DNA from: Tubulanus polymorphus
Lineage: Eukaryota; Animalia; Nemertea
Direction of reading: 5' to 3'
NCBI RefSeq assembly: GCF_964204645.1
Contig: NC_134030.1
Span: 13,510,656 to 13,574,655 of the forward strand
DNA length: 64,000 nucleotides
Positions 6,459 to 61,654 of the stretch are shown piece after piece. Every line of letters starts with the position of its first letter. The first letter of the stretch is position 1. The notes beneath the pieces were generated by a model that saw only the letters and a list, made by a program, of their open reading frames with translations, had not been told where the DNA came from and searched no databases. A program made the translations under genes and the position numbers.

Positions 6459-7706
6459 ATGAGTGGGAGTTATATAAGTCCTTCTAAGATTTCTAGAATA
6501 TCTAATGCTATTAAAGCAGAAAGATCACATCATATAATTACTCATAACCCTTCAAATATTAATCTCGATGAAACTTTATATGTTAGAATTCCTAGATTAA
6601 CACAAAATACTTTTTATGTTCCAAACAGTATTTATTTATCAGCTGATATAAAAGTAACTGGCCATGATAACAATTATGTTGTTGATAATGTTGGGAGATA
6701 TTTGATTAAAAAATTAATTATAAAGATTGGTCCAGAAACAGTTTTCTCATTAGATGATTATAATTTATTTATGCATTATAAAGATTTATGGTTAACTAAA
6801 GAAAATAGAAATAATATGATATTCCAAGGTATTCAATCGGTAAACCAAAATAAATTAAGATCTGAAGCCAATAATGCAGTAGTAGCTAATGACGTAGATA
6901 ATTTGATTAAAAAGATTTATGGAAGCAAATATAAAATTCCATTAGATTTTGAATTGATAAATAATAATGCACCTTTATATAAATACGCAATTCAAGAAGA
7001 TATTATATTTGAGATAACATTTGCTCCTGTAAATGAAATTGTATTATCTAGCGTTGTTAAAGATATGGGTTATAGATTATCGAATATATGTTTAGAATAT
7101 AACACAGTAACTAATGAAAATATTGCTAGCACAATTCAAACTCAATACAATCAAGGATTTTCATTATTATATGATTATATTGATAAATTTAAAACTGTAA
7201 CTATTAATGCAAATGATGAAATAATTAATGAGAATATTAACTTTCCTAGAAGATCTATTAAAGGTATATTAATATTTTTTACCATTGCAACATATTCTAA
7301 TGGCGCAATAAATGTTGATAATTATTATAATCCTGAAATAACAAAAGTAGAAATAACTATCGAAGGAATAGCGAATAAAATATTTTGCCAAGGAATGAGA
7401 ATGATTGATCAATGGCCAGAAATTAGAAAACATTTTATGAACGAAAAAGTGAAATCATCTGAAAATTGTAATATTAATCAAATTGATTATTATACTGGTA
7501 ATAAATATGCATTATGGTTAGATTTTAGAACAACAGAGGATAATTCATTACATGGTTCTGGAAAAAAACTACAGAACACTAAAGATGGAATACAATTATT
7601 CATGAAAAAGAAAAAAGGAATCAAAAATTTTAAAATGCACATTTATATTATATCTGACGCGCAATTAAATATTGTAAATTCACAATTAGATAGTATTCAA
7701 TATTAG
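6459..7706 (+). CDS. Major capsid protein (double jelly-roll, Polinton-like)
   Basis: 415 aa, beta-rich, intact, located between the membrane-protein module and the integrase; NPS, YKIPLDF, LWLDFR motifs; three copies in the window. Confidence 0.75.
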   Translation: MSGSYISPSKISRISNAIKAERSHHIITHNPSNINLDETLYVRIPRLTQNTFYVPNSIYLSADIKVTGHDNNYVVDNVGRYLIKKLIIKIGPETVFSLDDYNLFMHYKDLWLTKENRNNMIFQGIQSVNQNKLRSEANNAVVANDVDNLIKKIYGSKYKIPLDFELINNNAPLYKYAIQEDIIFEITFAPVNEIVLSSVVKDMGYRLSNICLEYNTVTNENIASTIQTQYNQGFSLLYDYIDKFKTVTINANDEIINENINFPRRSIKGILIFFTIATYSNGAINVDNYYNPEITKVEITIEGIANKIFCQGMRMIDQWPEIRKHFMNEKVKSSENCNINQIDYYTGNKYALWLDFRTTEDNSLHGSGKKLQNTKDGIQLFMKKKKGIKNFKMHIYIISDAQLNIVNSQLDSIQY

Positions 7707-12086: not shown

Positions 12087-12173
12087 TTATAAGGGAAAAA
12101 AATTTCTTGTGGTGACGAGTGGGGTGTCTCGCCCTCTCGCCCTCTGATCTGAAAGCCTACTTTTCTAATTACT

Positions 12174-13785
12174 CATGGTCACGTGCGCGACGACGCGGAG
12201 CTGTATGTTGTGTGTGGGGCGGCGATCTGCGTGGTTTCTGAAATACATTGTCTTGGGTATTTCTGGGCGGTTTTCCACTATTGTTCACAGCCGGATCCCT
12301 GGTTATAGGCGATGGAGAACGCGATCTATTATCAACATGGTTTGGGGTAGATTTATCTTGCATGTGTAGCTCAGTGTGGTGCTCGTCTCGTTTTGGTGAT
12401 GACGAATTACCTGATACCGGATCTGTGAACGATATGTTGTCGCCGGTTTGCGACAGCGTAATCATTTTGCAACTTTCATCGATAAATCGCTGAGTATTTA
12501 GAGTCTCTATTCGCTCATTCAGTTCGCGAACGGATTTGTAGGTCCGGGATTCACGTCGATCTATAATCTTTTGTGCCTTTTTTGTCCTGTCCATGAGAGC
12601 TTCAATGTTGTCACACGGCACGGTCAACATATCTACTCTTTGCAGGGTCTCGTCCATTTTTGATTTTAGGGAGTTGACATCTGATATTTTGGCACACTCG
12701 TTGACTTTCTGGTCAAGTCTCACTAATGTGGCCTGAATGTCTCCAAACAGTTTGACAATGTCCGTAACATCCATCATATTACCCGTTATGTTTGGATCGG
12801 TCTCAGCGCCGACCGATATTAGTTCTACGCTGGGTGAGGGACAGGTGGCTTGGCACACGGGCTCTGCCGAGCGTGTTTCGCATTGAGGTAGACTATCTCC
12901 TATAGTATCTGTTTGTGATCCTGTAGACTCCGAAACGGGTATTGACGATTTTGGAACACAAGGCGGACATATGTATAGTTCTTTGGTTGAGGAAGTGGCC
13001 TTGGCACGCTCCTTTTCGCCTAGGCCACAGCAATTGAAATGCGTCCAGCTACTACACAATGAACATCCGATCATCTCCTGTGTGTCGGGAGAATAACACA
13101 TCGTACATGAAGATTTTCTCTTGGGTGATAGAAGCAATTCTTTGCAACGTTTGTGTACACTGTCAACGACTCGCGGGAAGTATTCCGCCACCCATAACAG
13201 GTATGAGCTCCCCTGTACGTGGATCTTTGGCGATTTTTTCTGGGAGCCTTTGTATAACGTGATGTGTACCGAGCCGATCTGGTCACCTTTCGGGTCAATA
13301 TACGGTGTGGCGAAATGTAGTCCGTGGTTACCACGATCGGTTGGGTTACCGTGTGAAGCTCTCAGCGTTTCTAAGAAAGCTTGTACTTTGAGTTTATCTA
13401 GTATTATGACGACTGACTGAAACTGTTCATTGATTTGAATATTGTCTATTTCATTCTGATTTGTAACCGGGTTGCATTTAGTTGCGTTGCGTCTGTTGAG
13501 TGAGGTAGAGGGTTTCGAACCCTGAGTCAGTAGGTGGTCACGCAAACTCGTATACGCCGCGTTCAATTGTTGAAATTCTTCGGTCGCATTCGAATTAGAG
13601 TTCTTATCTGGGTGGAATTCCTTTGCCAATTGTATATATTTGATTCGCAGATCTTCAATCGATGGAATAATATCTAGTTGCATCGTTTTTGATAGGTTTT
13701 CTAGATCGATTTCACGACTTACATTTTCCATGGAGGGCGCCATCTTGGATTTTACATGTCGTATCTTTTTATTTATGCATTTCAC
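12174..13785 (-). CDS. DnaJ-domain + PHD-finger + coiled-coil protein, likely non-LTR retrotransposon ORF1; truncated by copy A
   Basis: LAKEFHPDKN..EEFQQLNAAY (J domain, HPD) and C4HC3 PHD CTMC..CSLC..H..C..CPPC. Intronless; the stop codon is supplied by the Polinton terminus. Confidence 0.7.
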
Positions 13786-15399
13786 TTTTATCGATAATTA
13801 GTAAAACTTTTGAAAATGAAATTATGCGCGGCTCATTAAGTGTCAGCCTAATAAATCCCAATTGACCTTTCAAATTCAAATTCAAGCAATTTTTCCTCCC
13901 TCCCTGAAATAATTCCTTTCTCAACATGTTCCTCAAGCAACATTTCCTCAAAGAAACCTGTAGAATGTCTAACATTTTCTCGACATGCCCTCTATTCTTG
14001 GATCCTTACTATGCCTTACAATAAATATTGTTTAGAAATATTTTCACCCTGTACTGAGAGTGGCAAGTTTGCAGGACTCTGTATAGGGATACAAATGGCT
14101 CAGTGAAATTCGTGTCAAATTGGGTCAAACACCCCACACAACACTGCAGTAACAGACAACACAGTTTACGATTACGATTACGATTACGATTTTATTTACA
14201 CTCCAACCATTTCCATGGTATATCGAGGAAAACTATTACACATGTATACATGTATACAAATATTTACAAAACAACACTGAAGTGATTAAAATTTAGAGAA
14301 CGTAACAAAATATATATACATCAACTATTTACAATACTATATATACTATTGGAGGGATCTATATACATCTAAGCCGGTCTTAATGAATTTAGCTAATTTG
14401 ACCGTTGGGTTTTTGGTTTACCTTTGTCAGCGATATGAAGTTGGCATTGAGCCAATTCATGTAAAATCGCGGTACGTTTTTTTATGTGAGCATTTGTTTC
14501 ATTGGTTCTCGGCTTAAACGACGTATAATCGATGCGATTGAAGACATGACGAACCTCTGTGGATGACATGGTCAACATTGTTAAAATTCTACGAAAAACA
14601 GTTTTTGGCGGGAAAATTCTTAGCTCTCGCGTATAAAATTGCATTGTTCTCGATGGGGGGGGGGGCGTTGTCTCTACGAGCGAATGTGATTGGCTGTTTT
14701 TGGGATATACGGGGAATTCCGGCGCTACTTAAATAATTATGGGAAAGCCATAGAATGGCGAACGTTTCATTGGACTAGGTGCCGTAAACGTGCGAATTTC
14801 AAACGCTCATTGCTGGTGAGAATGTAATTATTATCCGCCATAGGTATTGTTTCATTTTAAAGGCCGAGGAGTATGGATGCTAGTTAACCGGGTGGCAAAC
14901 ACTTGAGATCGGCCGTCCCACTTTTACAGTATCTTGTTCATAATGTCTAGAGTGAGCGAGGTTGGCTCACAACAGAAAAGCAGGTCACACACAGTTAAAT
15001 TTGACAAATTCATAAAAGTTTTCATATCGAGTTCTAAACAAATTTTAAATAATCTAGTCATAGTGGGAATGAAAATCTGATGCTAGCGATCTTTTTTTGT
15101 AGAGATAGGGCCAAGATTAAAGATTTTAGAGACATTTCAAATTTTTTGAAAATCATTAATTTTTATCCGATTTCGATGAAATTTGGACACAACATTGATG
15201 GTAGATAGCTAAACAAGTGTACGAAATTTCAGACTGATCCATTGACCATAGAAAAAGTTTTGATGTTGCCAAATGTTGGTACTATGAATGAGGCACGCTA
15301 TGTTTTGTTTATGTATACTGATGACTATAGGTATCAAATTACTGTTAATGTGCTCTATGAGCTACACTAATTCACTGGATAACTCCTCCCTACTTTTAA

Positions 15400-26593: not shown

Positions 26594-26883
26594 CTTATTT
26601 TAATCCATTAATAATAATTCAGATTTAGTTTCAATGGCTTTATGATTTGATTTATTTTCTGGTATGATAGGTTTATTGTCATTGGAATCATCTTTATCAT
26701 CAGATTTGAATTTTGATTTATATATTACGCCGGATAATATAATAACTGTTACTAATCCAATTGTAATATATAATTTATAATTACTTCCAGCATTAGAAGA
26801 ATCAGATGGCTTATTATTTGAATCAATATCAGATAAAGTCTGTGATTCATTTATATCAGTTAATTTCTTTTTCTTAGCTTTTT

Positions 26884-29102
26884 TAGGCCAGCCGTAGGCT
26901 GAGCCTATTACTATACAAATGGAGCGAATTTAAATGACATGGTTTCCACACAAAAGGCTCTTTTGCTTGCCAAGTGAGGGCATATTCGAACAAATCACGT
27001 ATTTAAGCGTAATCCATTCTCGGAATCGTAGCGAGCAGAATTTTGAAATAGGGTCTCATAAAAATGTTTTCTGCATTTTTCACGAAAGTTAAATCGGGAA
27101 AATTTCAATTTTTATCAGCCAATCAGGATGTTGTGTCTTCCCTGTGATTGGTTTATCTGAAAATATCAGCAGCTGTTCACGTGAATTATCGCGATTTCAT
27201 TACTGGCGCTTTTGCGCATGACGACAATACTTCCGCGTTCGCTACGTGTTCGCTGATTGGCCCATTTACTAGGAAATTCCACAGAAGCCTAATGTGGTTT
27301 GTTACAAGCGCTGTGATTGGCCCGACCCGATTCTGGCATGGCTTTAGCTTAGTGGGTTCGAATCCCTTGACGGGTGAAGATGATGGATCCTATCAATATC
27401 TATTGAAACAAATAAGTTTCCCGGTTGGGCAGCTGCGGATATCTACCGGAAGTGTTCCGGTTCGATATTTCGAGGTTTCTTTGAATTTTGGAGTGATATT
27501 GAAATCCGGTAATACCAGCGGTAGATTGTGAAAACCCATTGCATGATATTTGTATTACTTAATCAACGAAAAGCGTCGGGGCCGCGCCAGGAGTTTTCGT
27601 GATTCAAGTAGCGCAATAGCCTACTTCTTCGTGTTCGTCCACCTCAATTTTCACTCCGGCGATCTCTGACACGGCTCTGTCCCCGTCGGCGCTGTGATTT
27701 CACTTTCGTACCACCAAAATTTTTTATTTCTATATCAGGGAGGTCTGGAGAATAAAAAAGTCAAAATTTGGATATCACATAGGCCTGATTTCATCGAATA
27801 AGTCGACCATGGTCGTTACGTTTCCGTACTTATTACCACCTAAAACCCTCTGAACAATTTTGTCACAACCAACATTTCGTTTACAGAAATCAGGTGTTCA
27901 CGTGAATCCGCGGTATCGTCTACTGTTTTACTTCCGGGTTTTATTTTAAGATTTAAAATTGTATTTCAAGATCGATTTCTATGAAATCTTTAGTTGATTT
28001 GGTGTTTGGGAGGAATTTTTATTTGCTCTACAGAAAATTCATCCTTGACAATTGCGCAAGGTTCGCGAAAAAAAGGTTTTACCAAATCGGGTGTATGGCC
28101 TTGATATGCTAATTAGCCATGTGCCCGAATTGCAAATTCAATCAAATTTTATTCTGCCAAAAAATGTTAAATACAATTCGCTTTCCGAGAGTTAATGGTA
28201 TGCTGCATGGAACAAAGTTGTTTTGAGATGGGTCTTGAAGCTATTGAGGTCGAGAGATAACCATCTAGATAGTTCGTGAGAGTTCCAAAGTTTTGAAGAC
28301 GCTTCAAGGTAATGTCTTGATATTTGTTTTATACGTGTATCTACCCTAGACACATCTTCAGGCCAAAAACTGGCCCTGTCAGATTCAAGATGGCCGACTG
28401 GCAGCCATTGTTGTTCGCCAAAATCAGCACTTTTTACACATTTTTGAAGTTTTCGAGGGAAATTTTGAAGACACTTTTATCAATAACCTTGATCATTCGT
28501 ATATATTTGTATCCCCCGAGGGACAATCGGCATGAGAAAAATTGAGTCGATCGGACTCAAGATGGCCGTACTGTGACCTTTTTTGTTCCCAAAAATGTCA
28601 ATTTTGGCCTGAATTCTGAGTACTGTAGCTTTCTAATGGTGCGCCATGTTTCATTGCAATTTGTAATGGGTATTCTTTGGAAAGGGATCTTTTATATCCG
28701 AGAGGGTATTTTTGACCAGGCAATTATGACGCACTTGACAGCCATCTTGGGGTCATCAGTACTCATTCGTAGGTGGAAAAAAAGTTTTTCCACATCATAA
28801 TTGATACTTAAGCATATTTTGCTACTATAATCAATTGGAAAGTTGTAGCTCATGACATGTTCTATGATCGAGGTGAGTTTCAAGCTCATTGGTTTTTTTT
28901 ATGGCCACCAGGGGGCGTTGAACAATACAATAACTTAGTATTTCTATATTACATTCGTTCCTGCTGTCTGTTTTAACACACGATTTTACTATGTAAATGA
29001 TATTGAGCAGGGAGTGTATGTTGATAAATATAACCCACAGATTACATCATTTATAAAAAGCAAATCTGACAGGCTGGCCATTGTGCCCCTTGGGGCTCTT
29101 GT
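26884..29102 (+). mobile_element. Non-autonomous Helentron/Helitron2-like element, family 1
   Basis: Inserted in a T-run without a clear TSD. 5' hairpin AGGCCAGCCGTAGGCTGAGCCT, 3' subterminal IR GGCTGGCC, then hairpin GCCCC-TT-GGGGC. Splits the ORF homologous to 42456-42824. Confidence 0.8.
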
Positions 29103-40141: not shown

Positions 40142-40274
40142 GAGCAGGCGTGCTACTCATAATTTGAAAAGTGGATAATAGAAATATATCAATACGGGAT
40201 ACGCATTTGATGTGTCAAGTCACACCAATGCGGTTTAACATAACATAATTCATAGTTATAGTCAAATTGGGGGT

Positions 40275-40912
40275 AGTAATAGGGGTTTTAGTTGTTTCAT
40301 ACCAAAGGTCGAGAGGTCGAGAAATTTTCCAAATGTGAAAATAACAATAATTTCTACTTGAATTAGTCGCGTACACTCCTAATTCAAGTAGAAATTATTA
40401 TTATTTTAACATTTGGAAAATTTATCAACCTCTCAACCTTTCATATGAAACAACTAAACCCCTATTACTCTATCTAATCACAAGTCTCATAATTTACAAG
40501 CCTCAACACGTTGAGTATTGCGTATTACATGTTGATTCTAGAACCACCCATCTAGAAAACTACATTAGCCAATCACAGTTGAGTATTACTCTAGCCAATC
40601 ACAGTTGAGTATTACTCTAGCCAATCACAGTTGAGTATTTCCAGCCAATCACAGTTGGGTATTACACTATCCAATCACAGTTGAGTATTACTCTATCCAA
40701 TTACAGTTGAGTATTACTCTATCCAATCACAGTTGAGTATTCCCTATTACACTAGCCAATCACAAGCCTCATAATTTACAAGTCTCAACACGCAGCTGGG
40801 TTTTCCCCACTGTTGAGTAGTATAAATAGGCGGGACTCACGCGTGGTGGGACTCACACGTGGCGGGACGCGTTGAGAGGTAAGTGTTGAGAGGTAAGTGT
40901 TATGTTCAATTT
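40275..40912 (+). repeat. Left TIR of copy C (hairpin 40275-40469, CCAAT array, TATA)
   Basis: Reverse complement of 60025-60637. Confidence 0.95.
40567..40900 (+). promoter_or_regulatory. Putative inward Pol II promoter: 8 CCAAT boxes, TATAAATA (40821), GGCGGG, two AG|GTAAGT donors
   Basis: CCAAT at 40569, 40595, 40621, 40645, 40671, 40697, 40723 and 40756; mirrored (7 boxes) in the right TIR upstream of PolB. Confidence 0.6.
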
Positions 40913-40933
40913 AGTAAAAAATACATATAATAA

Positions 40934-41600
40934 ATGGAACCAGAACAACCACAAACTATCAATATTACAAATAACACTGGTGTTATAAATATATACTACA
41001 AGAAGTGTTCTAAATGTGAATTAGATAAATTAGCTTTAACAGAATTTAGTAAGCGTAAGATTAGCAAAGATGGTTTTCAATATTGCTGTAAAACTTGCAC
41101 TAAACTATATACCAAACAATACCGAGAAGATAATATAGAACATTATGATTATTATATGGCAGAATATATTAGAGAAAGATATCAAATAGATCTTAATTTT
41201 AGATTGAAACAATGCTTAAGATCTAGATTAACACAATTATTCAACAAAGAAACACATTCAGAAACACTATCTAATTTATTGGGTTGTACAGATGAATTTT
41301 CATATCATGGATAATATATCAATTCGACGATAAATTGAATATAGATAATTATGGAGATTATTTTCATATTGATCACGTGTTACCGATATCTAAATTTAAC
41401 ATGAATGATGAATACAATAAAAAACTTATTTGGGGTTGGAAAAATTTAAGACCTCTTGAAAAGAAAGAAAATAAAATCTAATCTAATAAACTAGATTTAC
41501 AGTTATATTTAGAGCAGTTAACAAAGGCAAAGAAATTTATTGATCAATGGAACAATGATCCAAATAATCAACAATACGTTGAGTCTTTAATGAGTGGTTA
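40934..41600 (+). pseudogene. Zinc-ribbon + HNH-type endonuclease (frameshifted)
   Basis: Near-identical to 30084-30761; FHIDHVLP lies in the shifted frame. Confidence 0.7.
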
Positions 41601-42830: not shown

Positions 42831-45800
42831 ATGAAAAAAGAACAATATTTAAGAGAGTTATATTACAACCCAGAAAGTGAAGCATCATATTCTAACGTTT
42901 CAGAATTATGGAATAAAATTAAATCTGATAATGAAAATGGTAATATAAAATATAGTGAACTAAGATTATGGTTACGAAATCAACCAACATATCAAATCCA
43001 CAAGAAAATGGATACAAGAGCCCCAAGGGGCACAATGGCCAGCCTGTCAGATTTGCTTTTTATAAATGATGTAATCTGTGGGTTATATTTATCAATATAC
43101 ACTCCCTGCTCAATGTCATTTACATAGTACAATCGTGTGTTAACACAGACAGCAGGAGCGAATGTTATATAGAAATACTAAGTTATTGTATTGTTCAACG
43201 CCCCTGGTGGCCATATACAAAAACCAATGAGCTTGAAACTCACCAAGATCATAGACCATGTCATGAGCTACAACCTTCCAATTGATTGTGGTAGCAAAAT
43301 ATGCATAGGTACGAATGTAATATAGAAATACTAAGTTATTGTATTGTTCAACGCCCCCTGGTGGCCATAAACAAAAACCAATGAGCGTGAAACTCACCTC
43401 AATCATAGAACATGTCATGAGCTACAACTTTCCAATTAATTATGGTAGCAAAATATGCTTAAGTATCAAAATGATGTGGCAAAACTTTTTTTTTCCACTA
43501 CGAATGAGTACTGATGACCCCAAGATGGCCGCCAATTGCGTCATAATTGCCTGGTCAAAAATACCCTCTCGGATATAAAAGATCCTTTTCCAAAGAATAC
43601 CCATTACAAATTGCAATGAAAAATGGCACACCATTAGAAAGCTACAGGACTCAGAATTCAGGCCAAAATTAACATTTTTGGGAACAAAAAAGGTCACAGG
43701 ACGGCCATCTTGAGTCCGATCGACCCAATTTTTCTCATGCCGATGGGCCCTTGGGGGATACAAATATATACGAATGATCAAGGTTATTGATAAAAGTGTC
43801 TTCAAAATTTCCCTCGAAAACTTCTAAAATGTGTAAAAAGTGCTGATTTTGGCGAACAACAATGGCTGCCAGTCGGCCATCTTGAATCTGACAGGGCCAG
43901 TTTTTGGCCTGAAGATGTGTCTAGGGTAGATACACGTATAAACCAAATATCAAGACATTACCTTGAAGCGTCTTCAAAACTTTGGAACTCTCACGAACTA
44001 TCTAGATGGTTATCTCTCGACCTCAATAGCTTCAAGACCCATCTCAAAACAACTTTGTTCCATGCAGCATACCATTAACTCTCGGAAAGCGAATTGGATT
44101 TAACATTTTTTTTGGCAGAATAAAATTTGATTGAATTTGCAATTCGAGCACATGGCTAATTAGCATATCAAGTTCATACACTCGATTTGGGAAAAGAAAT
44201 TTTTCGCGAACCTTGCGCAATTGTCAAGGATGAATTTTCTGTAGAGCAAATAAAAATTCCTCCCAAACACCAAATCAACTAAAGATTTCATAGAAATCGA
44301 TCTTGAAATACGATTTTAAATCTTGAAATAAAACCCGGAAGTAAAACAATAGACGATACCGCGGGTTCACGTGAACACCTGATTTCTGTAAACGAAATGT
44401 TGGTTGTGACAAAATTGTTCAGACGGTTTTAGGTGGTAATAAGTACGGAAACGTAACGACCATGGTCGACTTATTCGATGAAATCAGGCCTATGTGATAT
44501 CCAAATTTTGACTTTTTTATTCTCCAGACCTCCCTGATATAGAAATAAAAAATTTTGGTGGTACGAATAGTGCAATCACAGCGCCGACGGCGACAGAGCC
44601 GTGTCAGAGATCGGCGGAGTGAAAATTGCGGAGGTGGACGAACACGAAGAAGTAGGCTATTGAGCTACTTGAATCGCGAAAACTCCTGGCGCGGCCCCGA
44701 CGCTTTTCGTTGATTAAGTAGTACAAATATCAAGCAATGGGTTTTCACAATCTACCGCCGGTGTTTACCGGATTTCAATATCACTCCAAAATTCAAAGAA
44801 ACCTCGAAATATCGAACTGCAACACTTTCGAGAGATATCCGCAGCTGCCCAACCGGGAAACTTATTTGTTGATAGGATCCATCATCCCGTCAAGGGATTC
44901 GAACCCACTAAGCTAAAGCCGTGCCAGAATCGGGTCGGGCCAATCACAGCGCTTGTAACAAACCACATTAGGCTTCTGTGGAATTTCCCAGTAAATGGGC
45001 CAATCAGCGAACACGTAGCGAACGCGGAAGTCGCATGTTGATACATGACGTCATGCGCAAAAGCGCCAGTAATGAAATCACGATAATTCACGTGAACAGC
45101 TGCTGATATTTTTAGATAAACCAGGGAAGTGTGATGACTCATCACACTTCCCTGGATAAACCAATCACAGGGAAGACACAACTTCCTGATTGGCTGATAA
45201 AAATTGAAATTTTCCCGATTTTATTTTCGTGAAAAATGCAGAAAACATTTTTATGAAAGCCTATTTCAAAATTCTGCTCGCTACGATTCCGAGAATGCAT
45301 TACGCTTAAATACGTGATTTGTTCGAATATGCCCTCACTTGGCAAGCAAAAGAGCCTTTTGTGTGGAAACCATGTCATTTAAATTCGCTCCATTTGTATA
45401 GTAATAGGCTCAGCCTACGGCTGGCCTAAAAACTTATTTAACAAGAAAAGTTATGGTTTCATATATCGATCAACAATGGCAAGCAGATTTAATTGACATG
45501 AAGAACTTAGAAGAATACAACAAAGGATATTTCTGGATATTAAATGTTATAGACATATTCAGTAGATACGCATGGTCAATTCCAATCAAAAATAAAACTG
45601 GAATAGAAGTGACAAATGCTTTTAAATCTATATTTAAAGAAGCTATTCCAGATAAGATAACGATGTAGATTATTTTTCAACACATTCAGATAAAAAAGCA
45701 TCTATTATAGAAAGATTTAATAAAACATTGAAAACTAGAATGTGGAAATATTTTACTGCTAATGAAACATATAAATATATCGATGTGTTAGATGATTTAG

Positions 45801-46279
45801 TGAAAGGTTATAATAATTCTAAACATAGTTCTATAAATATGAAACCTATACAAGCTAGAAAAGAAGATAATTCAGAAAAAGTTTGGAATAATTTATATAG
45901 AGCGTTTGTTACACATGATTTTGGAGAACCTAAATTTAAAATTGGACAACACGTTAGAATATCTAAATATAGAAAAACCTTTTACAAAGGTTATACCCCT
46001 AATTTTACTGAAGAAATATTCAAGATTAAAAAGATAATATTAACTAAACCTTTTGTTTATAAACTAGAAGATCTAAAAGATGAAGAAATATTAGGTTATT
46101 TCTATGAACACGAATTATCACTTGTACCAAATCCAGATGAAATAGAATACAAAATAGAAAAAGTATTGAAAACAAAAACTCTTAAAGGAAAAAAGTATTC
46201 TCTGGTGAAATATAAAGGATATGATGATACATTTAATGAATGGATTTTATCTAGTAAAATTAAAAGAATAAATGAATAA
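42831..46279 (+). pseudogene. rve integrase with chromodomain, interrupted by Helentron-like insert and a small deletion
   Basis: N-terminus 42831-43013, resumes at 45429; QWQADLIDM, IDIFSRY, ERFNKTL, LVKYKGY..FNEW. Confidence 0.9.
43014..45428 (-). mobile_element. Helentron-like family 1, second full copy
   Basis: Reverse complement of 26884-29102 with the same termini and a different target site. Confidence 0.82.
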
Positions 46280-46883
46280 AGATTTATTTATATTTGAACC
46301 GCATAATATGTTAGTTACTGGACTAACCAATTGTGGTAAAACACATTTCATATTAGATTTGTTAGAAACTATTTATAAGAATCATTTTGATAATATAATA
46401 TTATTCTGTCCTACTTATGAAATGAATAAAACATATGATAGGGATATAGTTAAAATAAAAAAGTTTATTATATTAGATCCTAAAACAGTAAAAGAAAATT
46501 TAGATAATTGTATAAAAATAGCAATTGATACATATAAAGGATCAAATACATTATTCATTGTAGATGATTGCGCTAATTTACATGATTCAAAAGTGAGAGA
46601 AAGTGAGTTATGTTATTTAGCTTTCTCTGGGAGACATTTTGGGATAACAACATGGGTTTTAAATCAAAAATATAATTCAATTGTTAAAGGCTTTAGGGAG
46701 AATATAAGATTTCTAGTTTTATTCTACAATAAAGATAGAAAATCTATGCAACAATCATTGGAAGAAAATCAAATTATACCTACTGAATTACATGATGAAT
46801 GTATGAATAAATTAAAGAATAATAAAGGTTCAAAATTATTACTTAGGCTTCAATTTCCCTATGAATATAAATTTATAAAATAA
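46272..46883 (+). CDS. A32/FtsK-type DNA packaging ATPase
   Basis: Intact 203 aa: GLTNCGKT, FIVDD, GRHFGI, NQ. Confidence 0.92.
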   Translation: MNKDLFIFEPHNMLVTGLTNCGKTHFILDLLETIYKNHFDNIILFCPTYEMNKTYDRDIVKIKKFIILDPKTVKENLDNCIKIAIDTYKGSNTLFIVDDCANLHDSKVRESELCYLAFSGRHFGITTWVLNQKYNSIVKGFRENIRFLVLFYNKDRKSMQQSLEENQIIPTELHDECMNKLKNNKGSKLLLRLQFPYEYKFIK

Positions 46884-48204: not shown

Positions 48205-49451
48205 TTAATACATAACACTATTTTATTGAGAATTTACAATATTTAATTGCGCGTCAGATACAATATAAATGTGCATTTTAAAATTTTGATTCCTTTATTC
48301 TTTGTCATGAATAATTGTATTCCATCTTTAGTGTTTTGTAGTTTTTTTCCAGAACCATGTAATGAATTATCCTCTGTTGTTCTAAAATCTAACCATAATG
48401 CATATTTATTACCGATATAATAATCAATTTGATTAATATTACAATTTTCAGATGATTTTACTTTTTCATTCATAAAATGTTTTCTAATTTCTGGCCATTG
48501 ATCAATCATTCTCATTCCTTGACAAAATATTTTATTTGCTATTCCTTCGATAGTTATTTCTACTTTTGTTATTTCAGGATTATAATAATTATCAACATTT
48601 ATTGCACCATTAGTATATGTTGCAATGGTAAAAAATATTAATATACCTTTAATAGATCTTCTTGGGAAGTTAATATTCTCATTAATTATTTCATCATTTG
48701 CATTAATAGTTACAGTCTTAGATTTATCAATATAATCATATAATAAATAAAATCCTTGATTGTATTGAGTTTGAATTATACTTGAAATATTTTCATTAGT
48801 TACTGTATCATATTCTAAACATATATTCGATAATTTATAACCCATATCTTTATTAACGCTAGATATTACAATTTCATTAACAGGAGCAAATGTTATTTCG
48901 AATATAACGTCTTCTTGAATTGCGTATTTATATAAAGGTGCATCATTATTTATCAATTCAAAGTCTAATGGAATTTTATATTTGCTTCCATATATACTTT
49001 TTATCAATTTATCTATAGCATTAGTTAATATTGCATTATGTGCTTCTGATCTTAATTTATTTTGGTTTTCTGATTGGATGCCTTGAAATATCATATTATT
49101 TCAATTTTCTTTAGTTAACCATAAATCTTTATAATGCATAAATAAATTATAATCATCTAATGAGAAAACTGTTTCTGGACCGATCTTTATTGTTAATATT
49201 TTAATCAAATATCTTCCAACATTATCGACAACATAATTATTATTATTACCGTTTACTTTTATATCGGCTGATAAATAAATACTATTTGGAACATAAAAAG
49301 TATTTTGTGTTAATCGAGGAATTCTAACATATAAAGTTTCATCGGGATTAATATTAGAAGGGTTGTGAGTAATTATATGATGTGATCTTTCTGCTTTAAT
49401 AGCATTAGATATTCTATGATTCTTAGAAGGATTGATATAACTCCCACTCAT
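48205..49451 (-). pseudogene. Major capsid protein (stop near 49101, 3' frameshift)
   Basis: ORFs 49101-49451 and 48243-49094 match 6459-7706. Confidence 0.8.
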
Positions 49452-54905: not shown

Positions 54906-57900
54906 TTAACACGTTAGAATTCTTTTCATTATCTCGTTCTCTTTTGTTTCTTCTCTTTTAAATTTTAAGTATTCATCTAAATTGCAGCCATAAGCAACTG
55001 TATGAATTCCATCATCCAGAATATATCTTTTATCATCAAATGGGTTTAGACTAATGTTTTCAATTTCTTCAATAAACATTTCATGATCTTCAGATCTTAA
55101 ACATCTCATCTTATGTTTTCTAACTTCTTCATTGAATATACAATTGATGTAATCTTTGAAATGAATATTCTTTTCTACTACACTTTTGGTTATTCCTTTT
55201 ACTTTTTTAGCTTCATGTTCTTTAGTTTTATATGAATACATTTTAGATCTAATACCAATGAACTCTATCATTTCTTCACCACCTAATTCATCTTTGAATT
55301 TACCAGGAACTTTTTTATTATCATTGCTAAACAATTCATGATTTTTAGGATAGTTACTAAAATCAAAATGATGTTTTAATGTTTTTAAATCATCTGTTAT
55401 GTTATTAGTTTTTATCTTTAATATGTAACTGTCAGTATTTTTTATGATTAATGGAAATCCACAATTAAATGTACCATCTTCAGTTGTTAAATCATAAACA
55501 TATTCTGTAGGATTGGATATTTCAAATAAATCTAGCTTCTTCAGTTAGTTCATTTTCTACATGTGTTAATTGAAATACATTTGGTTTATCCTTTCTAATA
55601 TTAACTAACATATTAAATCCTAATGAATTGCATAATATATTTAATCCTGATATAGCAACTTTTCCTTTTTGTGTCAAAGATATAGTTTTCTGTTTTGTAT
55701 AGTTTTTTGAACCATCTGCAGCATAAAATCCAATGAAGAACCATTTTCTTAAATCATATTTTGCATTTAATACATAATCTGGAACTATCTTTTCTTTTGT
55801 TGAAGTATTACTTTTGACTATTGCATGAATATAGAATTCATCATTATATTTAATTGCAAAATCTTTAGGGTTATTTACAAGTATTCTATAAATTGCTGAT
55901 GATTTCATAAAATCTATGATTTTAAATGTTTTATTTGAGTAAACTTGTTCACAGTATTTTTTAATTCTATCTAATAATTTCAAATCTTGATTGCATAAAT
56001 ACCAACAATATTTAGTTCCACTAACATATTTATACACACCTGCTGATCCATCTCCCATAAAAAATCCTTTGATAAATTATTCTTTTTCTTCCAATGTTTC
56101 GGGTTCTATATTATAGATATTATCAATTATTTCATCAAATGACATATGATTCATTCTTGGGTAAAATCATTTATGTAATAATTCATCTCCAATTTTTGTA
56201 TCAGTTGGTTTTATTTCATCACCATTTTGTTTAATTAAACTATGATCTTCAGTAACATCAACAAATCCTAATTTAGTTCTAACTCTATAGATTTTCTTAT
56301 TCGTTTTATGTCTAATTATATTCTTTAATTTCACCCATCCATTGTTTGTCCAAACATCCATTAATCCATTTATTTGTATTAATTCTTTTTCACCATACGA
56401 AATATAAAGTTCATTTTGTTTTGGAATTATTTCTGAAATTCTTCTTATTAACATTTGATTATTATATTTTAAAAATATTGGGGTGTCAGCTGTAACAGAA
56501 TCAAAATATAATATTTCTATATGTTTTTCTCCAAAATGAGGTTGTAATACATTATAATAGAATTCATACATTAATAACTTTGGTATTTCTAAAACTGAAG
56601 CACCAACATAGATTGGTTTATTAAATTTCATTGATGTTCTTCTCATTTTAACTGCGGCTAAATTTTCATCAAATATTCTGTTACCTAAAAACTTAGGATA
56701 TGTTTGTAAATGCCTTATCCTTTTACCATTACTAACTAACTCAATATCATTTCTATTTCTAATATTTTCACAAGTCTTACCATAGAATGCATTATTCATT
56801 AACTTGAAGAAATCTTTCTCAAAATCAGTTTTAGTTTCAGTTCTCTGTTTGGTGTTAAAATCTATATATTTTTCTAACCACTTAGATTGACTAAATGAAA
56901 TATAACTATGTACTTTTTTTTAGGATCATTCCTTGTTTTAGATAAAACTTTAACATTCTATAATGTACTACATAATTAAATTTATCTTCCTGAGTAACCA
57001 TTAACTTTTCTGTATGAATATGATTTTCGGGTTTAATTCTTTTTTGATAATTTGATAATTCTTCATGAGTTACAGTTTTATGTTCTGGACAGTATGCTAG
57101 ATTTCTAGATTTAAATTTAATATGTTCAGGATATTCCAAGTCTACAACAAAAAAGTAACCAGTATCTGAATCATCTGCAATATCTAGGATTCTTTTCTTC
57201 CAATCAAATTTATCATTATTTTCATGTTGTTAAACTTCACTTATTTCAAATACTCCATAAGGTTGTGGTTCCATCATTGCCCAACCGTACAAATTATTTG
57301 CATCTATATATAATAACTTATATCCGGGGTTATCATTTACATTGAAATATCTATCGCCTAATACACCTGAAACTCCTCCTCTTATAGATTTTTCAAATAA
57401 TAATAATTGATCTATATTTGTTAACAAATCCATTTTTATATCTGTAAATTTTAAACCACAATCCCATGTTAATCCTGGACTTGAATAACAATGACAAGGA
57501 TCAATATTGAAATATTTTAGGTTTACATCTCTAAACCTTTCAAATATATCGGCTAATAATAATACATCTGATTTTAAATATAAATCTACTAATTGTCTAT
57601 GATTTTCTATTTTGAAATTATTCCAAATATTCAATGTTCTATTATAGACTTCATCTTTAACATATTCATTTTTTAATTCATCATAGAATTGTTCTTTTAA
57701 TAATTCAGATATATTGAAATCATTATGATTTTTATAGAAAGAATATGGAATCGCGCCTTTATATCTCATTAATTGAAAATCATCATTATTTGGGTAGTGT
57801 TGTTTTAATATTTTTAATTCATCATCAACTAATGATTTTGGAACTATTTAAAAATCTATATGAATCTATAAATCTTAAACACCCAAATTGGAATGATATA

Positions 57901-60002
57901 TAATTCTCAGATGTTTTAGCTAACATTTTAAATTCATAAGTTGGTATTTTATCTTTTGATCTATTTTAATTTAATCTTTCTATTTCATTATTGATTTCTT
58001 CTATTTTATAACATAGCTGTTTGATAAATAAATGTGCATCATATCCTGATAGATTATGAAATATAACTGGTACAAAGTTAATTTTCTTAGCTTGTAAGTT
58101 ACAATTCTCATGTGCAGCACCTCTAAACTTTCCATTCAAATGATCATGGTCTCTTACTTTTTTATCTCTAAAATTAAATATCTTTTCACAATAATAACAT
58201 TTATCTGCAAACTCAAATGCTTCTTTATCTTCTTCTGTCATTATAATTTCTATATTTCTATTTAACTTTTCATTAAATTTTATTTCATATTCAATTAATA
58301 AGTCACAAAAATGATTGATAACATTTTCATTTCTATAATCATATTATTCACTTTTAATTAGTTCTGGATAATCAGATTTTATGTATAATCCAATAGCAGC
58401 AGCTGATTGATGAATCTTTTTAATTGTATTTGTTTTTGGGGGATCTGAATAATCAATTATATTATTTTCATTAGAATTTAATTTCTTTCTTTTATAATAT
58501 ATTTCTTTTCTATCTTGATCAGTTAATTCTATATTTAATGATTCAAAATCTCCATATATGACAAATGGAACTTTATTTTTGTAATCACATTTTTTGAATT
58601 CTAATATTTTATCCTTTTCATTTGGTAAAACTAATTTACAATAATCATGATTTTCACAAAATTGTTTATGATTTAATAATGCACTTTCAGTTCTGAATTT
58701 ATGTAAACATTTTCTACATAGATATATTTTATTATCAAAATCATTTTCTGATTTAAAAGATAAATCAATTCTTTTAATCCACATATAATGATTCTCATAA
58801 TATAATATATCTATAACACCATTTGAATCATAATCTTTTGATAGATATAAAGGTTCTAATGTATAATGTTTTATATTGTTACCTTTTGTATTTGGCAATT
58901 TGATTAAATCAAATACATTTATCTTTATATTATTATCTCTTTCTATTTTTGGGATGTTTTTAATTATAACAGGATACTTATCTATCTTATAATTATTTTC
59001 AAATGGTTTATAATGAGTTAATCTAAAACTATGTGTAATATCTTCTGTTGGATGTAAGCAACTTATAATAGCCCATAGAAAACATTTATCATCAAAATTT
59101 TGTACATTTATTACAGCATTAGTTTTAAATGGTAGTTTAATATAACTCGATGCTTCAATATCTGGTTCTTTATAATATGATACATTATTTTCATTTATTG
59201 GTTTTGATTAAGTTAACTTATCATATTTTGTGTTATAAACATGTAAAGTCATAAATATTATTTCATCAAATATTAAACCAGATCCTTCAAAATATTTCTC
59301 TTCTATTTTAGTTTTTACTTCATTATAACATTTATCTAATTTATCATCTATATGTTGTTTTGAAATAATATGTTGTGAATGAGAATTTATATTATATATT
59401 GGGTTATCTTCAGATTTTATGAATTTAACTTTAACTGATATGCTAATTTTAGGATATTCAACATCAGTTATTATTTTCATTATTTCTTTCATATTTTCTA
59501 AATGTTTTTTATTTTCTTCTAATGTTTTTCCTTTATGAAATTTAAACTCGATAGCTGCTGGACCAATATCACTTTTAAATGCTTCGGTTATCTCTATATC
59601 TTTTTTATTATCTAATGAATTAATCTAATTTCTTACATCTTCCATGTATGGTCTTTTACTGTTTAATTTATTTTTAATGCTTTTAATTGTCTTATGTTTC
59701 TTATCATTATCTTCATCAAAATAATCTTCACCTAGAATATCATTATTCTTATTTCTAATATGACTTTTAGATTGTAAATGTTCATTATAATATCTTTTAT
59801 CACTGAATGATTGATTACATGTATCACATTTATATGTTTTTTTTTCATTCTTTAATTCATCTAATTTAGTTTCTAATATTTCATCTTCATATTCTAATTT
59901 CAATTTATTCTCTAAATGTGTTTTAGTTTTATTGTGCCTTGCTTTTTGGGATTTATCTATATTGATTTTACATGTTGAACAGTAGTACTTATTTGCTTCC
60001 AT
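54906..60002 (-). pseudogene. polB: Protein-primed family B DNA polymerase (multiple stops/frameshifts), intein-containing
   Basis: N-terminal C2H2 fingers; DDKCFLWA..ENHYMWI (OTU-like); YGDFES; CYYC..RDHDHLNGKFRGAAHENCN; FHNLSGYD; YLKSDV; YIDANNLYGWAM; KLMNNAFYGKT; YFD|TDS; GKFKDE; SKMY; KKVKG. Confidence 0.95.
55437..56499 (-). mobile_element. Intein with LAGLIDADG homing endonuclease inserted in PolB motif C
   Basis: YFD|SVTADTP; block B VTEDHSL; KGFFMGDGS and IGFYAADGS; C-terminal YVYDLTTEDGTFNCGFPLIIKN|TDS. Two stops (56167, 56077) and one frameshift (~55530). Confidence 0.93.
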
Positions 60003-60024
60003 TTTAATATTTAAATTTTTTATT

Positions 60025-60637
60025 AAAATTGAACATAACACTTACCTTTCAACGCGTCCCGCCACATGTGAGTCCAACCACGTGTGAGTCCCGCCTATTT
60101 ATACTACTCAACAGTGGGGAAAACCCAGCTGCGTGTTGAGACTTGTAAATTATGAGGCTTGTGATTGGCTAGTGTAATAGGGAATACTCATTTGTGATTG
60201 GATAGAGTAATAAACAACTGTGATTGGATAGATTTATAGTAAAGTACTCAACTGTGATTGGCTGGGAATACTCAACTGTGATTGGATAGAGTAATAGGGA
60301 ATACTCAACTGTGATTGGCTAGAGTAATACTCAACTGTGATTGGCTAATGTAGTTTTCTAGATGGATGGTTCTAGAATCAACATGTAATACGCAATACTC
60401 AACGTGTTGAGGCTTGTAAATTATGAGACTTGTGATTAGATAGAGTAATAGGGGTTTAGTTGTTTCATATCAAAGGTTGAGAGGTTGAAAAATTTTCCAA
60501 ATGTTAAAATAATAATAATTTCTACTTGAATTAGGAGTGTACGCGACTAATTCAAGTAGAAATTATTGTTATTTTCACATTTGGAAAATTTCTCGACCTC
60601 TTGACCTTTGGTATGAAACAACTAAACCCCTATTACT
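60025..60637 (-). repeat. Right TIR of copy C (hairpin 60444-60637)
   Basis: Reverse complement of the left TIR. Confidence 0.95.
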
Positions 60638-61654
60638 GGGGGTTACTCGGGTCGTTTAGTTGTCTGTGGAGTCGAGTAGATTGGTTACCCGTCTGTAACA
60701 TTGATTACGGAGACTCGTCAGCTTGATGAGTTGTATGTATTATGATTGTGCACCACCTGCATTTTCCGAAATAATGTTCATATAATTATTTGAAGGGACG
60801 ATTTAAATCAATTATCAACGTACATCTGAATATGTAATAGTCCTTAGTAACTTTCTGTTGCAGAGGGCATAGAAAAGATTTTGAAATTATTTAATTAAAA
60901 TATAAATTTTATTTACGAAAAATAAACTATTATGGTCAGTACAAATTGAAAATTCATAGTGTATTTTAAAGAACAAGCTTACATAGCTTACAGAATACAT
61001 CACGTACATTTGAATTTTATAAGTGATGGGTAAAAATCAACATGTGGCAGAAAGAAATGTAGTTAATTATTTAACAATATCGAAATATGTGCTCTCTTTT
61101 TAAACTAATGGAGTGATACGCATTTAATCACATGGCCTGTATTAAAAGATAGAACATACAAGTTGGATATTTATAAGTCGAAACATGTGAACAGAAACTA
61201 AAATTTTGATGTCAGTGACCAGTATGGAATTACACAACGACAATTGGCTTTAAACTCAACAAACATTATTAAAGAATGTTTCAAACAAAATGCTTTAACG
61301 ACATGAATAAACTTGTTTTACAAAACAAGAAAGTACATTTTGAACTTTTGAATGGTCGAATCCCATTTATTCAAAGTAACCTGTGATGTGGCGATTCTCG
61401 GAGCCATCCTTCTGTGACGTCACTAACAAGTGGTCACGGCCGTACGCGTGCACTCATTTCTTTGAAAATCTAGCTTCTTCGCGGAGCGGGACCTGGTGAC
61501 GCTGCGCCCGTCCCCTTCGCGCTGAGATATATCTTATTCCCAGTCAGCAGAGACAGGTTCTAAAGATCATAGAGTGCATCGCTGGAGGTTTTCCGATCCA
61601 TATAATTGAATTTGAATTGGTGCGGTGGCGCTCTCAATGCGGAAGTTTTTGTCA

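Follow-up and report, generated by a model that had tools for sequence, protein, structure and literature searches.

A decayed Polinton and its polymerase gene

The window, by which we mean the whole stretch of 64,000 nucleotides analysed, contains a complete Polinton of 20.4 kb at 40275-60637. The element is bounded by terminal inverted repeats (TIRs) of 670 bp starting with AG, the left one at 40275..40942 on the plus strand and the right one at 59994..60637 on the minus strand. Their alignment of 677 columns is 89.8% identical with gaps counted, and mismatches occupy 22 of the 632 aligned columns. The 6-bp target site duplication GGGGGT adjoins both ends (40269..40274 and 60638..60643, plus strand), and the flanks of the element are repetitive. 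In each TIR the outermost 195 bp (40275-40469 and 60444-60637) form a palindrome of their own, of about 89%, and 26-bp CCAAT-box tandem repeats adjoin these palindromic ends.

On the plus strand the element codes for a broken rve integrase with a chromodomain (45408..46279; PF00665, E 5e-5, below cut-off on this broken piece, and PF00385, E 9e-5) and for an A32-type packaging ATPase (46272..46883; PF04665, 46.5 bits against a cut-off of 22.8). A likely double jelly-roll major capsid protein, also broken, is located on the minus strand at 48243..49451 and is 93% identical to an open copy at 6459-7706. This candidate gave no Pfam match; an Atlas feature matched it at 0.97 to clusters with PF21738, PF16903 and PF04451 on 10-24% of their members, a result of low recognition value. 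No Pfam match to an adenain-type protease was obtained among the 22 open reading frames scanned. Another repeat, 93% identical to 26880-28962, is inserted secondarily within the Polinton at 43307..45432.

The protein-primed DNA polymerase (pPolB) gene occupies the minus strand next to the right TIR; it was recognised by tblastn and by a PF03175 match that passed the cut-off, as did PF04665. The N-extein (56500..60002) comprises zinc fingers, an EndoVII/HNH insert, the exonuclease and the palm, and carries five stops and two frame changes. The EndoVII/HNH domain (58092..58253, minus strand; PF02945, 28 bits against a cut-off of 23.6) showed no splicing motifs. The C-extein (54906..55436, minus strand) begins with the residues TDS. 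In run X1 the contig depth falls about 20-fold at 60003, where the PolB gene meets the TIR. A pPolB, an rve integrase and an A32 ATPase in one element, with TIRs, a 6-bp target site duplication and a length within 15-25 kb, identify the Polinton that the preliminary description of this DNA had named as carrier of an intein.

At least three more partial Polinton copies, of two subfamilies, are present in positions 1-35800 of the window, none of them with a PolB gene. An open reading frame of 542 aa at 12172-13797 (minus strand) combines a DnaJ domain with a PHD finger and is perhaps a retroelement ORF1; nothing useful on this combination was found in the literature.

The whole PolB gene has seven stops and three frame changes. 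Three of these ten breaks, two of them stops (codons 56169 and 56079) and the third a frame change in the stretch from 55549 to 55529, are inside the intein, which makes up 21% of the gene length (p = 0.44). As the breaks within the intein match its share of the length, and considering the 22 mismatches between the TIRs, the Polinton appears to have decayed as a whole after integration, in agreement with the earlier view that intein and gene decayed in step. The window copy of the intein is dead.

The insert in the catalytic motif and its alleles

The insert lies on the minus strand (56499-55437) exactly between the YFD and TDS of the catalytic motif C, and its length of 1063 nt corresponds to 354 codons plus one nucleotide. 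The N-terminal splicing region (56236..56499) begins with SVTADTP and contains Ser1, the pair R63-H64 and the block TEDH at T83-H86. The endonuclease region (55624..56079) has two LAGLIDADG helices, GFFMGDG and GFYAADG, with D150, D262 and the block D Lys. The C-terminal splicing region (55437..55529) runs from YVYD to GFPLIIKN; the end of the intein reads YVYDLTTEDGTFNCGFPLIIKN and the next residue is Thr. Of these features the start, TEDH, the two helices, the KN end and the following Thr had been described from the letters, and all five were found.

Profile searches agreed with that description. TIGR01445, the intein N-terminal region, matched residues 2-88 at 32.2-34.5 bits (cut-off 24.5), and PF14528 (LAGLIDADG_3) matched at 33.7 bits (cut-off 22.5). 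The isolated 36-aa C-terminal piece scored 11.3 with TIGR01443, whose cut-off is 15.6, and separate pieces of the window gave no Pfam match to a Hint domain. An AF2 model of residues 1-325 with X at the stop positions (pLDDT 74, pTM 0.79) had endonuclease-bearing inteins as its best structural matches: TliVMA (E 5e-9), PI-PkoII, PI-PfuI and PI-SceI. Matches to I-DmoI and PI-PfuI, together with two motifs carrying acidic residues, place the central domain among LAGLIDADG homing endonucleases by both fold and motif.

The class-1 (Ser1/Thr+1) markers Ser1, block B TxxH, block F Asp, terminal Asn and Thr+1 are all present. The penultimate His of this class is a Lys in the window intein; the position varies in the family, with KN in 49 and HN in 30 of 111 relatives. 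The R63-H64 pair was tentatively assigned as motif NX, by analogy to PMC10189870 and from a weak alignment to 9hth (E 0.02). The GC content does not differ between intein (24.5%) and extein (23-25%). The insertion point at the D|T of motif C and the kinship with other pol-c inteins define the allele. Judged by its residues, domains and modelled fold, the insert is a Ser1/Thr+1 LAGLIDADG intein at the pol-c site of a Polinton protein-primed PolB.

Four runs that carry the same species label and stem from two studies supplied DNA reads, which were mapped on the PolB gene. The junction 55436/56500, which skips exactly 1063 nt, was present in all four runs: in 156 raw DNA reads of X5 with 86 starts, and in contigs of X1-X3. 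A further 94 X5 reads skip the intein with a few differing letters beside the site; these 94 of the 250 empty-junction X5 reads have synonymous differences in the T-D-S codons at 55428-55436. The median depth was 221 inside the intein and 643 outside it, a ratio of 0.34, and the intein is present in about a third of the copies of this Polinton. Copy numbers were estimated at about 330 for PolB and 115 for the intein per Gb (from 1.93 Gb read, counting reads of at least 85% identity). The insert described earlier is thereby borne out, with both its boundaries fixed to the base, and intein-plus and intein-minus alleles, the coexistence of which had been raised, both occur under this species label. 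An assembly artefact or chimera was considered and is ruled out by the reads.

At the two stop codons of the window intein another letter was found in 241 of 251 and 252 of 256 reads. Other full copies are therefore free of these stops, which are nearly private to the window copy. Depth at 55488-55709 was 52-93, against 188-257 in the remaining intein. Because of this drop most other full copies must differ from the window copy over the last 220 nt of the intein, which points either to several intein variants or to a mosaic copy.

Relatives and trees

A pPolB-type flank, judged by eye, was found in 13 of 31 near-length intein matches, and at least seven of the 120 matches listed out of 238 longer ones, including the top five, were pPolBs. 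P0054, P0055 and P0057 are intact intein-bearing pPolB open reading frames of 1537-1693 aa; intact pPolBs with the intein are thus present in other assemblies, alongside empty alleles. Both LAGLIDADG aspartates are kept in all eight pPolB inteins aligned. P0057 is a pPolB of another class with an intein of the same clade, known from a single sequence on a 5.3-kb contig; its class motif, which we take to be VSR-type, gave no Pfam match.

Full and empty sites coexist among close relatives too. The 15 listed of the 136 members of the P0055 cluster comprise seven full, five empty and three fragmentary ones, on contigs of up to 1 Mb, and the full inteins among them are 96-99% identical to that of P0055. 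The seven full rows were compared with the five empty members and two further empty relatives: nine fixed differences were found, and in this 1191-aa protein all of them fall within -6 to +44 relative to the site. Among the 15 listed of the 121 members of the P0058 cluster the intein was present in five and the site was empty in one, whose extein agrees with that of a full copy in 740 of 742 residues. A search with the extein gave 118 new matches, of which 83 were empty, two full and 33 without coverage of the site. The closest exteins to that of the window, P0360-P0362 (79-83% identical), are all empty. Among these matches (P0360-P0477) motif C of the empty pPolBs reads D-T-D in 55 of 83 and D-C-D in 28 of 83; the latter is possibly resistant to cutting.

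Outside the Polintons, the best profile matches scanned had PF00136 or TopoII hosts in 23 of 24 cases, plus five short Polinton-type fragments, and no new full-length pPolB was found in the best 150 of 2730 matches when cluster representatives were searched with a profile. Among 117 loci from viruses and metagenomes, none contained a pPolB and none matched the intein at more than 44% over its full length; viral contigs scanned with the intact pPolBs P0054 and P0360 held no relative. A related endonuclease-bearing pol-c intein is present in the nuclear DNA polymerase delta of the green alga Chloropicon primus (P0138/P0205), where it groups with viral-type rows, and another, 38% identical to that of the window, in a Promethearchaeota (Asgard) PolB (L118:3001-4008, P0018). 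Close relatives (P0218-P0251, P0151-P0169) also reside in type II topoisomerases and, in PF00136 polymerases, at motif B.

Separate trees were built for inteins and exteins: a FastTree of 108 inteins of 300-445 aa, from which six near-copies or mis-cut rows were removed, a mixture-model tree of 53 chosen intein rows, and a tree of 52 hand-picked exteins. The seven pPolB inteins formed one clade (100/100), the sister of which (95/97) was a clade of 12 rows in PF00136 polymerases that included the GVMAG loci L001, L002 and L009. The gene neighbourhood of L009 is giant-virus-like, and the inteins of the sister clade have the G-x-P/A-L ending in common with those of pPolBs. Both clades nest in a clade of 34 rows (100/98), whose 27 non-pPolB rows are in nucleic-acid-primed PolBs; the outer rows are in nucleic-acid-primed PolBs, one Asgard-type PolB, a green-algal Pol delta or TopoII. 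The placement of P0057 in the pPolB intein clade had a p-AU of 0.47 in the AU test. These trees sustain the proposed kinship with giant-virus PolB inteins at the pol-c site, with the inteins beside giant-virus ones and the window extein a protein-primed PolB (PF03175).

The window intein is 47% identical to that of P0057 and 42% to that of P0064. The corresponding exteins are unalignable with that of the window by BLASTP (E 0.5 and E 6); global alignment gives 21-27% identity between unrelated proteins. Inteins 42-47% identical are lodged in polymerases too distant for a BLASTP alignment, from which at least two horizontal transfers follow: one linking a PolB of giant-virus type with a pPolB, the other into a second class of pPolB. 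On outgroup rooting the direction was probably from giant virus to Polinton, and co-infection is a putative route. The window intein belongs to an old clade specific to pPolBs, with only some 42% identity to its closest giant-virus counterpart, and this lineage probably descends from an ancient transfer out of a giant-virus polymerase. DNA around the insertion site agrees with that of nine giant-virus loci at 10-14 of the 18 inner positions, which makes a direct recent jump unlikely; Ogata et al. pointed to the same mismatch of site DNA between Mimivirus and archaea and favoured a stepwise transfer (PMC549080). The jump between an NCLDV PolB and a pPolB that the preliminary description proposed is supported as regards kinship. 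It was neither private to this genome nor recent, given the old clade and its intact members in other assemblies.

Probable homing among Polinton copies and known intein systems

We consider it probable that a Polinton intein lineage derived from giant viruses persists by homing from full into empty copies. An intact precursor would splice by the class-1 oxyester route, using Ser1, R-H63/64, TEDH, the terminal Asn and Thr+1, and splicing, which is predicted for the intact members, would rebuild the YxDTDS active site. The intein would be shielded from deletion by this dependence of the active site on splicing. The freed endonuclease would presumably cleave empty YxD|TD sites in further copies within that nucleus; with a full copy as repair template, these would be converted together with short flanks. 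Since the element is multi-copy, hundreds of targets per nucleus would explain the retention of the endonuclease motifs. Intact full-length reading frames in relatives speak indirectly for splicing, and the flank tract and the scattered occupancy for cutting. Co-conversion from a donor family would be expected to produce a tract of fixed differences like that in the P0055 family; a similar one could result if cut-resistant empty alleles survived. A stronger form of this reading, in which a living giant-virus-derived LAGLIDADG intein drives through hundreds of Polinton copies in animal germlines, crosses hosts and pPolB classes, and selects resistant active-site variants (D-C-D, recoded T-D-S codons), is conceivable, and we would lean slightly against it as a whole.

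The host is quite probably an animal, though the grounds for this view are weak. The PHD-bearing and DIRS-like repeat ORFs presumably fit an animal host. The same mechanism in a protist, oomycete or fungus would be compatible with homing and is unlikely, yet a serious contender: the window consists entirely of repeats, no host gene was found within its 64 kb and Rfam gave no match there, HNH-type pPolBs are described from oomycetes as well as nematodes in the available part of PMC10748475, and fungal adintovirus-like PolBs are on record in that of PMC8502044. Against it, if weakly, a named eukaryote match of this pPolB class is an insect (P0373, 39%). Contamination by chance, which the preliminary description had kept in mind, is unlikely because the element is integrated and multi-copy in a genomic library and the intein occurs in two studies.

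A single ancient gain, followed by vertical inheritance and repeated precise loss with an endonuclease that no longer homes, is improbable as the whole explanation. Long vertical inheritance is part of the history, since the trees of HNH-type inteins and exteins agree in outline (window with P0054; P0055 with P0056), and change counts are blind to gain versus loss. However, occupancy is scattered over the extein tree, where 12 state changes, at least eight of them forced by the starred branches, are no fewer than in shuffles (mean 11.8), and loss would have to be precise every time. Loss also leaves aside the local tract of fixed differences by the site, the retention of both catalytic aspartates in lineages merely 44-62% identical, and the intein in P0057 with its unalignable extein.

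Several independent jumps into different Polintons from an unsampled giant-virus lineage, with giant viruses as a standing reservoir, would account for the deep branches within the pPolB clade (0.8-1.0 for P0058 and P0057), for its poorly fixed base and for the arrival of the family in green-algal Pol delta and Asgard PolB. This we find quite improbable, because neither the tree of 108 rows nor that of 53 placed a non-pPolB row within the clade, and the 117 viral and metagenome loci contained nothing closer than the limit given above. An origin in pPolBs with passage to giant viruses is scarcely credible: the pPolB clade is sister to the nearest giant-virus clade and not nested in it, but all outer branches (46 of 53 rows) are in nucleic-acid-primed PolB or TopoII, including an Asgard archaeal PolB.

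Homing within a clade that is probably still mobile remains our preferred reading. The clade records that giant viruses and Polintons exchanged DNA, at the single motif that their polymerases have in common. Single genomes would hold whole homing populations, with targets that are full, empty or perhaps resistant, and the homing cycle could be measured in them directly. If the host is an animal, endonuclease-bearing inteins have entered a germline; if not, the known range of inteins in protists and viruses is extended and the animal germline was not reached. In the accessible parts of two surveys the eukaryotic inteins are those of fungi, algae, protists and giant viruses (PMC5784728, PMC10710043).

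The literature consulted on Polintons, Mavericks, adintoviruses and pPolB yielded no intein in a protein-primed polymerase, nor a record of such inteins as common in Mavericks; a case may be listed in the supplements of PMC5784728 or PMC10710043, in Repbase or in subscription papers. The word intein is absent from the main texts of PMC10748475 (as is LAGLIDADG), PMC11131425, PMC8502044 and bioRxiv 10.64898/2026.10.13.758929, and the available part of PMC12220804 makes a general remark only.

The nearest likeness within pPolBs is with the HNH and VSR nuclease inserts described in Polinton pPolB2 (Jeong 2023, PMC10748475) and proposed to stem from intein invasions (Krupovic 2024, PMC11161782). 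The window pPolB bears such an EndoVII/HNH insert too. In the accessible descriptions these inserts sit away from motif C, whereas the window intein splits the active site, has full splicing motifs and is polymorphic; it supplies a real intein for that proposal. Virus-borne polymerase inteins in nuclear genomes are also found in Klebsormidium, Tetrabaena and Hondaea, within viral-like DNA polymerases that have become endogenised, and in Anaeramoeba Pol (Gallot-Lavallee 2023, PMC10710043). Those hosts are algae and protists; the text available describes no multi-copy population of full and empty sites, and Polinton, animal and metazoa do not occur in it. Cysteine-less Ser1 inteins (Pasch 2023, PMC10189870, in the part available) are alike in Ser1/Thr+1 and in an R-H pair that precedes the N3 TxxH by about 20 residues. 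Unlike those inteins with the motif NX histidine, the window intein is contiguous and endonuclease-bearing, not split, with a penultimate Lys in place of His.

The closest known systems are the pol-c inteins of Mimivirus, other NCLDV and archaeal PolBs, which, as far as the accessible parts of PMC549080 and PMC5784728 describe them, have in common the YxD|TDS site, Ser1/Asn/Thr+1, LAGLIDADG and a length of about 350 aa. The resemblance to the Mimivirus intein stated in the preliminary description holds for the site, Ser1, Asn and Thr+1, but the KN ending was not seen in that part of PMC549080. The nearest relatives of the window intein, in GVMAG contigs, have the GFPLIxKN ending in common with it. 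The intein allele as such is known; its kind of host is new, and it forms a distinct and persistent clade in Polinton polymerases. The inteins of this clade differ from those of NCLDV and archaea in being housed in the PF03175 protein-primed PolB of an integrating element rather than in a PF00136 polymerase, in forming a clade of their own at about 42% identity, and in having full and empty targets by the hundreds in one nuclear genome.
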